From an uncultured Rhodospirillaceae bacterium (lineage in GTDB: Bacteria; Pseudomonadota; Alphaproteobacteria; UBA11136), in contig CAZAKR010000012.1 in assembly GCA_964486105.1 (NCBI GenBank), positions 4,195 to 68,194 on the forward strand: a stretch of DNA of 64,000 nt, read 5' to 3'. The position numbers and the translations under genes are program-made. Below are positions 38,213 to 38,251 of the stretch, in pieces. The notes under the pieces were generated by a model. The model saw only the letters and a list, made by a program, of their open reading frames with translations, did not search any database and was not told the origin of the DNA. Each line of letters opens with the position of its first letter. Positions within the stretch are counted from its first letter, which is position 1.

Positions 38213-38251
38213 TTGTATAGGCTGTGCCTATATGTATAGACTGCGCCCATG
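38213..38251 (+). promoter_or_regulatory. Putative leaderless promoter overlapped by two 17-bp operator-like sites
   Basis: TTGTAT-18nt-TAGACT-6nt-ATG. Palindrome TATAGGC-TGT-GCCTATA (38216-38232) and degenerate copy TATAGACTGCGCCCATG (38235-38251). Confidence 0.6.

Follow-up and report, generated by a model that had tools for sequence, protein, structure and literature searches.

Introduction

In the window (the whole stretch of 64,000 nucleotides that was analysed, to whose positions the coordinates below refer), a gene at 38249-39520 (+) encodes a protein of 423 amino acids in which an XRE-type helix-turn-helix (HTH) domain is joined through a linker to a complete porphobilinogen synthase (PBGS; HemB, ALAD) domain. 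An earlier note on this DNA had described tandem 17-bp operators over a leaderless promoter at the start of the gene and had proposed that the fusion protein regulates its own synthesis there. The locus therefore raises the question of whether the HTH of a heme-pathway enzyme recognises the palindrome in front of its own gene, or whether this palindrome is a remnant, a target of another regulator or an accident.

Results

The XRE-HemB fusion

The fusion was the sole hemB of the source genome (2.06 Mb, 97.8% complete). The gene on its 3' side is convergent, so that hemB stands alone; its neighbours are biotin-synthesis and hydrolase genes, and a divergent cro-like gene and a prophage are absent. 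The features of the locus are given in Table 1.

Table 1. Features of the hemB locus in the window; sites and promoter elements are predicted or candidate features.
Feature	Position	Strand	Remarks
ldtR-like MarR gene, divergent, ~300 bp from hemB	37417..37941	-	NCBIfam TransRegLtdR E 2.9e-50, below cut-off
Predicted sigma70 -35 hexamer, TTGTAT	38213..38218	+	same in 11/11 fused loci; 3/6 match to TTGACA
Site 1, candidate main operator, TATAGG-N5-CCTATA = TATAGGCTGTGCCTATA, centred at -25	38216..38232		perfect 7-bp arms, 3-bp centre
Site 2, candidate weak second operator, TATAGACTGCGCCCATG, centred at -6	38235..38251		13/17 identical to site 1; covers -10 and ATG
Predicted -10 hexamer, TAGACT	38237..38242	+	TA...T fixed in 11/11 loci; sister genus TATGAT or TATGGT
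ATG start codon; A38249 = predicted transcription start, leaderless mRNA	38249..38251	+	6 nt past -10; no Shine-Dalgarno
XRE/Cro-C1 HTH domain, aa 1-64	38249..38440	+	Pfam HTH_3 aa 7-61, E 2.5e-9
Recognition helix QPTVSDW, aa 29-35	38333-38353	+	QPT[VI]SDWERD invariant among relatives
Variable linker, 33 aa (relatives 14-37 aa)	38441..38536	+	low pLDDT in model
Porphobilinogen synthase (HemB/ALAD), cysteine-free metal site as in P. aeruginosa enzyme	38537..39520	+	Pfam ALAD aa 100-418, E 1.7e-138

The N-terminal domain matched the HTH_3 profile with 37.4 bits (curated cut-off, 23) and thus belongs to this family. Its closest solved structure was the N-domain of P22 c2 (E 6e-10), and the best PDB matches were 3JXB, 2R1J and 1ADR. 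The enzyme part scored 508 bits against the NCBIfam equivalog PRK09283 (cut-off, 297), as a full-length ALAD does, and its best PDB match was 1B4K, the PBGS of P. aeruginosa (E 5.8e-129, aligned over aa 96-420). K291, K346 and E331, to which we assign catalytic and Mg-binding roles, and the arm motif R101-R106 were invariant among relatives; the lysines and the arm aligned to 1B4K. Since no other hemB was present in a genome of this completeness, we infer that the enzyme is catalytically active and forms octamers. The C-terminal part of the fusion is the ALAD domain, and no S24 autoprotease domain was found in it by profile search. AlphaFold2 prediction on a four-row alignment gave a mean pLDDT of 54.6 and a pTM of 0.43, values at which the domain arrangement is unusable, and prediction of a complex of two HTH copies scored 0.00. 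A terminator-like hairpin was noted on the antisense strand within the HTH coding region (38275-38290 (-)); one was found against 0.4 expected, and it is probably due to chance.

Predicted promoter and candidate main operator

The palindrome, its 13/17 copy and a predicted promoter of the form TTGTAT-N18-TAGACT followed by an ATG 6 nt after the -10 hexamer had all been described beforehand, and their coordinates proved exact. Site 1 overlaps the last 3 nt of the predicted -35 hexamer and fills the spacer. The predicted promoter matches the consensus at 7 of 12 positions, and a consensus promoter scan did not call it. That no Shine-Dalgarno sequence precedes the ATG was confirmed: the duplex of the preceding 20 nt with what we took to be the anti-Shine-Dalgarno 12-mer had an energy of +0.1 kcal/mol, i.e., there was no pairing. 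Perfect 7-N3-7 palindromes are common in the 2.06-Mb genome (234, or one per 8.8 kb). By chance, a genome should hold about one exact ATAGG-N5-CCTAT, and the source genome has one exact copy, at site 1. A lone palindrome in a non-consensus promoter is thus weak evidence, which is raised above chance by conservation and by the link to the HTH type.

The expected co-occurrence of operator and fusion in relatives was observed in all five genomes with upstream DNA and in all six metagenome loci. In these 11 fused loci (five genomes and six metagenome contigs, some of them near-identical), TTGTAT-N18-TAnnnT and ATAGG-N5-CCTAT were fixed at a synonymous divergence of about 60%. The ATG followed the -10 hexamer at 6 nt in nine loci; in the remaining two, a first ATG came after 7 nt. 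ATAGG and CCTAT never varied, whereas the five central bases did; therefore, the conserved element is better written as (T)ATAGG-N5-CCTAT(A). Between the source genome and a metagenome locus of the same genus (L087), the 39-nt region from the -35 hexamer to the ATG differed at one base, which lies in the 2-nt gap between the sites. Synonymous sites differed by 24-32%, and the DNA just upstream of the 39-nt region was unrelated.

A palindrome in front of unfused hemB genes had been named in the earlier note as an observation that would speak against autoregulation. The palindrome score was 10/10 before all five fused hemB genes compared and at most 8/10 before all 23 unfused ones; the corresponding matrix scores were 14.0-22.5 bits and at most 5.7 bits. 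When the matrix was trained without hemB, on 39 sites from 18 non-hemB loci, site 1 was the top-scoring position of the 2.06-Mb genome, with 22.5 bits against 17.8 bits for the next.

Two relatives (G002 and G003) carried 39-50 nt of tandemly duplicated start sequence before the main ATG, and the start is not strictly leaderless there. Three upstream open reading frames of 4-5 codons (MILE, MTLI and MTLKL) were read in L003:1451-1503 (+) and in the same region of L005 (-). The upstream frames of these two genomes are linked by TAATG/ATGA overlaps, and in G003 the chain overlaps into the main ATG, so that a leaderless start may be relayed through translational coupling.

The second site

Site 2 scored 7.5 bits, compared with 22.5 bits for site 1; 203 genome positions scored as high, and the value falls in the bottom tenth of the training-site scores. 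With the -10 hexamer and the ATG held fixed, random bases reached it about 1.2% of the time (P ~0.012). The site was unchanged in L087. In the sister genus, its position scored -8 to -21 bits, i.e., the site was absent, and a copy of 9.6-11.1 bits was found 20 bp upstream of site 1 in all seven promoters scored; that upstream position scored -29 to -31 bits in this genus. In all nine promoters scored, one strong and one weak site were thus about two helical turns apart, with the weak site on opposite sides in the two genera. Of the tandem arrangement proposed earlier, the 13/17 copy at 38235-38251 stood, but its downstream placement was confined to this genus, the sister genus having the upstream copy instead. 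It is reasonably probable that site 2 is a real operator; that site 2, taken alone, is a product of chance is the less probable reading, though one of considerable weight.

Two sites could also work as at the PRM promoter of lambda, where one site would activate and the other repress, and the fusion would both raise and cap its own expression. The sister-genus copy has its centre near -45, directly before the -35 hexamer and close to the position from which lambda CI activates; moreover, a weak, non-consensus promoter with an 18-bp spacer would need help, and layouts like that of cI and cro were seen in stand-alone relatives of the HTH. However, the strongest site overlaps the -35 hexamer and the spacer in all loci, and in this genus the upstream position is empty by score and the second site covers the -10 hexamer. 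Activation of this kind is considered improbable, and plain repression is the preferred reading of the paired sites.

Spread of the fusion and selection on the HTH

The XRE-HemB fusion was found in all six genomes of the order, the copy in G001 being cut by the contig end; the records of the relatives are metagenome-assembled genomes of uncultured Alphaproteobacteria or Rhodospirillaceae. Among 55 genomes of the class, 43 others had a hemB match (one of them, G045, is unpublished), and in none of these did the match reach an HTH. An HMM search detected no in-frame HTH before unfused hemB in the 23 loci examined. Of 8000 homologs scored, the best 120 included 10 clusters in which XRE and ALAD were combined; nine of these represent this family, while the tenth (P0165) carries a different head. 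A homolog search with aa 1-110 recovered only the fusion's own cluster, and the best 150 matches of an HMM search of 50% representatives were almost all multi-HTH proteins and hence uninformative. In a tree of HTH domains (82 rows, 64 columns), the hemB heads formed one supported branch, apart from the pheA heads; the deeper forks did not separate, so that no donor is named. Because all fusions of this HTH type belong to one clade, the co-occurrence of the palindrome with hemB counts as one event.

Within genera, dN/dS was 0.035-0.12 for the HTH and 0.10-0.16 for the enzyme; between genera, it was 0.20-0.31 and 0.11-0.18, respectively. Judged by these ratios, the HTH is under purifying selection, which within genera is as strong as that on the enzyme.

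These data bear on the possibility that a phage-derived promoter and HTH were captured for the sake of the promoter and start codon, that the HTH no longer regulates and that the palindrome persists as a part of the promoter. A single origin of the fusions would be consistent with such a history, as would the lower identity between genera of the HTH (56-63%, against 72-75% for the enzyme), and the overlap of promoter and operator makes their conservation hard to separate. Nevertheless, the recognition helix is invariant, and within genera the HTH is held as firmly as the enzyme, in contrast to the freely drifting linker. Although the five central bases change, neither half-site does, and the one on the right, CCTAT, is part of the spacer and shares no base with either hexamer. 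A head that has lost its function is thus distinctly unlikely, and an HTH that still binds the palindrome is favoured.

LdtR and the search for a regulon

The palindrome might instead be bound in trans, by LdtR or by a heme, iron or oxygen regulator, with the HTH acting on targets elsewhere; binding by LdtR had been considered in the earlier note as a counter-argument to autoregulation. An ldtR gene is indeed divergent from hemB in the window, in G002 and G003 and in L087. However, the loci of G004, G005 and L089-L092 lack ldtR but retain the operator, and the gene was not found anywhere in G004 (88% complete) or G005 (86% complete). Conversely, two unfused hemB loci with divergent ldtR lacked the palindrome. 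According to published work on LdtR (PMC3999280), ldtR is divergent from hemB in Rhizobiaceae, and in Liberibacter LdtR binds a site that is rich in AT and not palindromic; when the hemB promoter was tested with a reporter in B. subtilis, no regulation by LdtR was seen. LdtR was therefore rejected as the binder of site 1. A global regulator, moreover, would be expected to have further sites in the genome, and regulation in trans appears very unlikely as compared with binding by the fused HTH.

Two further features were observed next to ldtR. Upstream of ldtR there is an AT-rich block (TTAAATATATATAATTTAAATCAGA, 37980-38050), which L087 has in almost the same form; it probably serves as the promoter of ldtR or as a binding site for LdtR and is distinct from the operator of hemB. 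Directly after ldtR, biotin-synthesis-like genes were found (32610-37284), whereas an L,D-transpeptidase gene occupies this place in Rhizobiaceae.

The suggestion that TATAGGC-N3-GCCTATA would recur near hem or cob genes was not upheld, as a genome scan found the site only at hemB. A degenerate 17-mer, WATAGS-N5-SCTATW, had its sole match at hemB in G002, G003 and G005; in G004, where the last base of the site is G, it had no match, and in G001 its single match lay elsewhere. In the source genome, 13 non-coding positions reached 9 bits, the best after site 1 having 13.9 bits, and the other high-scoring positions were mostly inside reading frames. None of the non-coding positions of at least 9 bits preceded a recognised hem or cob gene, as judged from the first 45 residues. 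Since the site 1 motif is unique in the genome, a hem/cob regulon was rejected.

The palindrome and the recognition helix outside hemB

Because the hemB fusions have a single origin, the link between palindrome and helix was tested outside hemB. From 158 XRE loci, those with less than 100 nt of upstream DNA or more than 90% identity were dropped, which left 100, and removal of three hemB rows left 97. The motif ATAGG-N5-CCTAT had been fixed from hemB before these loci were tested. Of 53 genes whose helix reads Q[PA]T[VI][SA], 17 had it (at least 9/10) in their upstream DNA, whereas none of the 44 genes with other helices did; shuffling predicted 0.30 and 0.17 loci, respectively. A relaxed motif, ATAG[GC]-N5-[GC]CTAT, which was chosen after Bacillota rows had been inspected, occurred in 40/53 and 1/44 loci; 13 of the 53 lacked even this form. 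The only enriched spacer was 5 bp (40, compared with 1-11 for other spacers). Both sets of loci (53 and 44) contain clusters of relatives, many of them from Bacillota or Betaproteobacteria, and P values therefore overstate the contrast.

Pairing of helix and palindrome recurred on several separate branches of the HTH tree. Bacillota XRE repressors with QPT[VI]SDW (L104, L109, L131, L196-L205 and others) had ATAGC-N5-GCTAT sites; compared at this level, the helix-operator code holds across phyla, with the Bacillota site one base off the proteobacterial form. The idea that the palindrome follows the HTH was thereby supported, as stand-alone repressors with the same recognition helix carry the palindrome at their own starts. 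In some of these stand-alone relatives (L093, L107, L178 and L181), two or three operators spaced about 25 bp apart lay between the repressor gene and a small divergent gene. None of the four other XRE genes of the source genome has this helix. A viral pattern scan gave 11 loci, none with an XRE gene within 150 nt downstream, and a viral HTH scan gave seven loci, none with the helix of the fusion. Comparatively, the operator at the own promoter appears to track the recognition helix. That site 1 is a chance palindrome without function is hardly credible, for all the abundance of such palindromes counted above, since it occupies the same place in all 11 loci at their synonymous divergence and matches the helix-specific motif.

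XRE heads on other enzymes

XRE-prephenate dehydratase (XRE-PheA) fusions were found in several alphaproteobacterial families (L050, L053-L056, L066, L169, L173 and L211-L239), and their HTH profile was matched in 32 of 91 genomes of one order. The PDT motif was recognised by pattern in 33 of the 37 loci read; two failed the pattern and two were mis-framed. Many of these loci have leaderless-type promoters and helix-specific N5 palindromes. The palindromes, read by eye and without a clear palindrome in some rows, change with the helix: QATVSAW goes with TATAGG-N5-CCTATA, QPTVNRW or QPTVTRW with TATACG-N5-CGTAT, QSTVNRW with TATGCG-N5-CGAATA and HSTVNRW with TGTGCA-N5-TGCACA. Cluster records include Pacificispira sp. 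and Aestuariispira ectoiniformans as named hosts; pheA of the source genome itself is unfused. XRE-PheA thus resembles XRE-HemB in its XRE head, linker, biosynthetic enzyme, helix-matched N5 palindrome and often leaderless-type promoter, but it has another enzyme, a wider spread and a separate HTH branch (in a short alignment).

A second XRE-enzyme fusion occurs in the same lineage, with an HTH joined to YjeF_N and NAD(P)H-hydrate dehydratase (G000:C4:8135-9973 (-), L243). It was present in the source genome and in four of five relatives (L251, L252, L255 and L257) and has its own conserved palindrome-like site (TATGGATTTAAAATCCATA in the source genome) about 100-130 nt upstream of the HTH. 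A further XRE-HemB fusion (P0165/P0271) of 414 aa, with four cluster members, seems to have arisen independently and has a different helix, EETVRRYE.

Discussion

The comparisons presented here indicate that the N-terminal XRE HTH of HemB quite likely binds 38216-38232 in its own predicted leaderless promoter and would thereby repress hemB transcription. RNA polymerase would start at A38249, the A of the ATG, and the mRNA would be translated without a leader. Two HTHs would take the two half-sites of site 1, so that the -35 hexamer and the spacer would be occupied and polymerase blocked; the sign of regulation follows from the position of the site alone. The weaker second site, 19 bp downstream here and 20 bp upstream in the sister genus, could take a second HTH pair, which the oligomeric enzyme could supply on its flexible linkers, and would add occupancy. 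As there is a single target site, the loop would set the level of HemB rather than a heme regulon, holding it near a set value. Assembly of the enzyme, which depends on Mg2+, substrate and concentration, might, speculatively, tune DNA binding; a linker of 14-37 aa argues against tight allosteric coupling. As to origin, hemB would have been joined in frame, in the ancestor of the order, to a cI-like repressor head that brought along its own promoter and operators. In view of the layout of several stand-alone relatives, which face a small divergent gene over two or three operators, the cassette resembles the cI half of a phage-type switch that was grafted onto hemB.

The fusion shares with the lambdoid repressors (P22 c2, 434 cI and lambda CI) an XRE five-helix head, 17-bp palindromes at the own promoter and a predicted leaderless mRNA; the lambda cI mRNA is leaderless. 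Whereas these repressors end in an S24 autoprotease, the fusion has a housekeeping enzyme, and its locus differs from the lambdoid switch in lacking a divergent cro and a prophage and in having two sites instead of three and a single target. BirA, PutA and enterobacterial NadR, the last with an XRE-type head, are single polypeptides that act both as active enzymes and as repressors of genes of their own pathways. They have shown ligand switches, and BirA and NadR have operon or regulon targets, whereas the sole site of the fusion is its own promoter. To our knowledge, none of the three concerns tetrapyrrole synthesis. By sequence and by selection, the fusion would qualify as a trigger enzyme, in which a single chain combines an active enzyme with a DNA-binding domain.

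A further comparison is offered by BzdR of Azoarcus sp. CIB, which also consists of an N-terminal XRE HTH, a linker and an enzyme-derived domain (PMC3602430). According to that report, the BzdR kinase domain is without detectable activity, the protein controls a catabolic promoter, and the head dimerises by itself; the domain is shikimate-kinase-like where the fusion has ALAD, and the fusion falls outside the BzdR subfamily (PMC3602430). The synthetic protein Q1, in which the BzdR head was placed on the shikimate kinase of E. coli, was both enzyme and repressor in that account (PMC3602430). Q1 is man-made, whereas the fusion is natural, is the sole hemB with intact motifs and has its own gene as putative target.

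On the enzyme side, the nearest solved system is the non-zinc, Mg-responsive PBGS of P. aeruginosa (1B4K), to which the enzyme domain aligns with its N-terminal arm kept; none of 24 solved PBGS relatives aligned to the HTH. HemB is a textbook morpheein. Depending on Mg2+, substrate and concentration, PBGS takes the form of an octamer or of smaller assemblies (PMC7729013). In the open-licence PMC and bioRxiv literature, neither an HTH-fused, DNA-binding or self-repressing HemB nor an HTH-fused PheA was found.

Few enzymes double as repressors, and how an enzyme becomes a regulator has been reconstructed only by a man-made chimera, as far as the BzdR study tells (PMC3602430). The locus would add a natural example that involves a core enzyme of heme synthesis, with a predicted operator pinned to 17 bp, and the helix-to-operator code predicts mutations that should break and restore binding. 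Since the enzyme is a morpheein, the fusion makes an assembly-state readout on DNA testable. The second XRE-enzyme fusion in the same lineage and a third in other Alphaproteobacteria suggest a repeated route to autoregulation. It is a tentative and rather unlikely extension of these findings that the fusion is the first natural DNA-binding PBGS, in which the assembly state, octamer or smaller forms as governed by Mg2+, ALA and concentration, sets how many HTH pairs reach the operators, so that the morpheein would serve as a transcriptional sensor of heme flux. The fusion would then be one case of a route, repeated in Alphaproteobacteria, by which a phage-type head and promoter cassette may, in a single step, make self-regulators of housekeeping enzymes (HemB twice, PheA and a YjeF-type NAD(P)HX repair enzyme).
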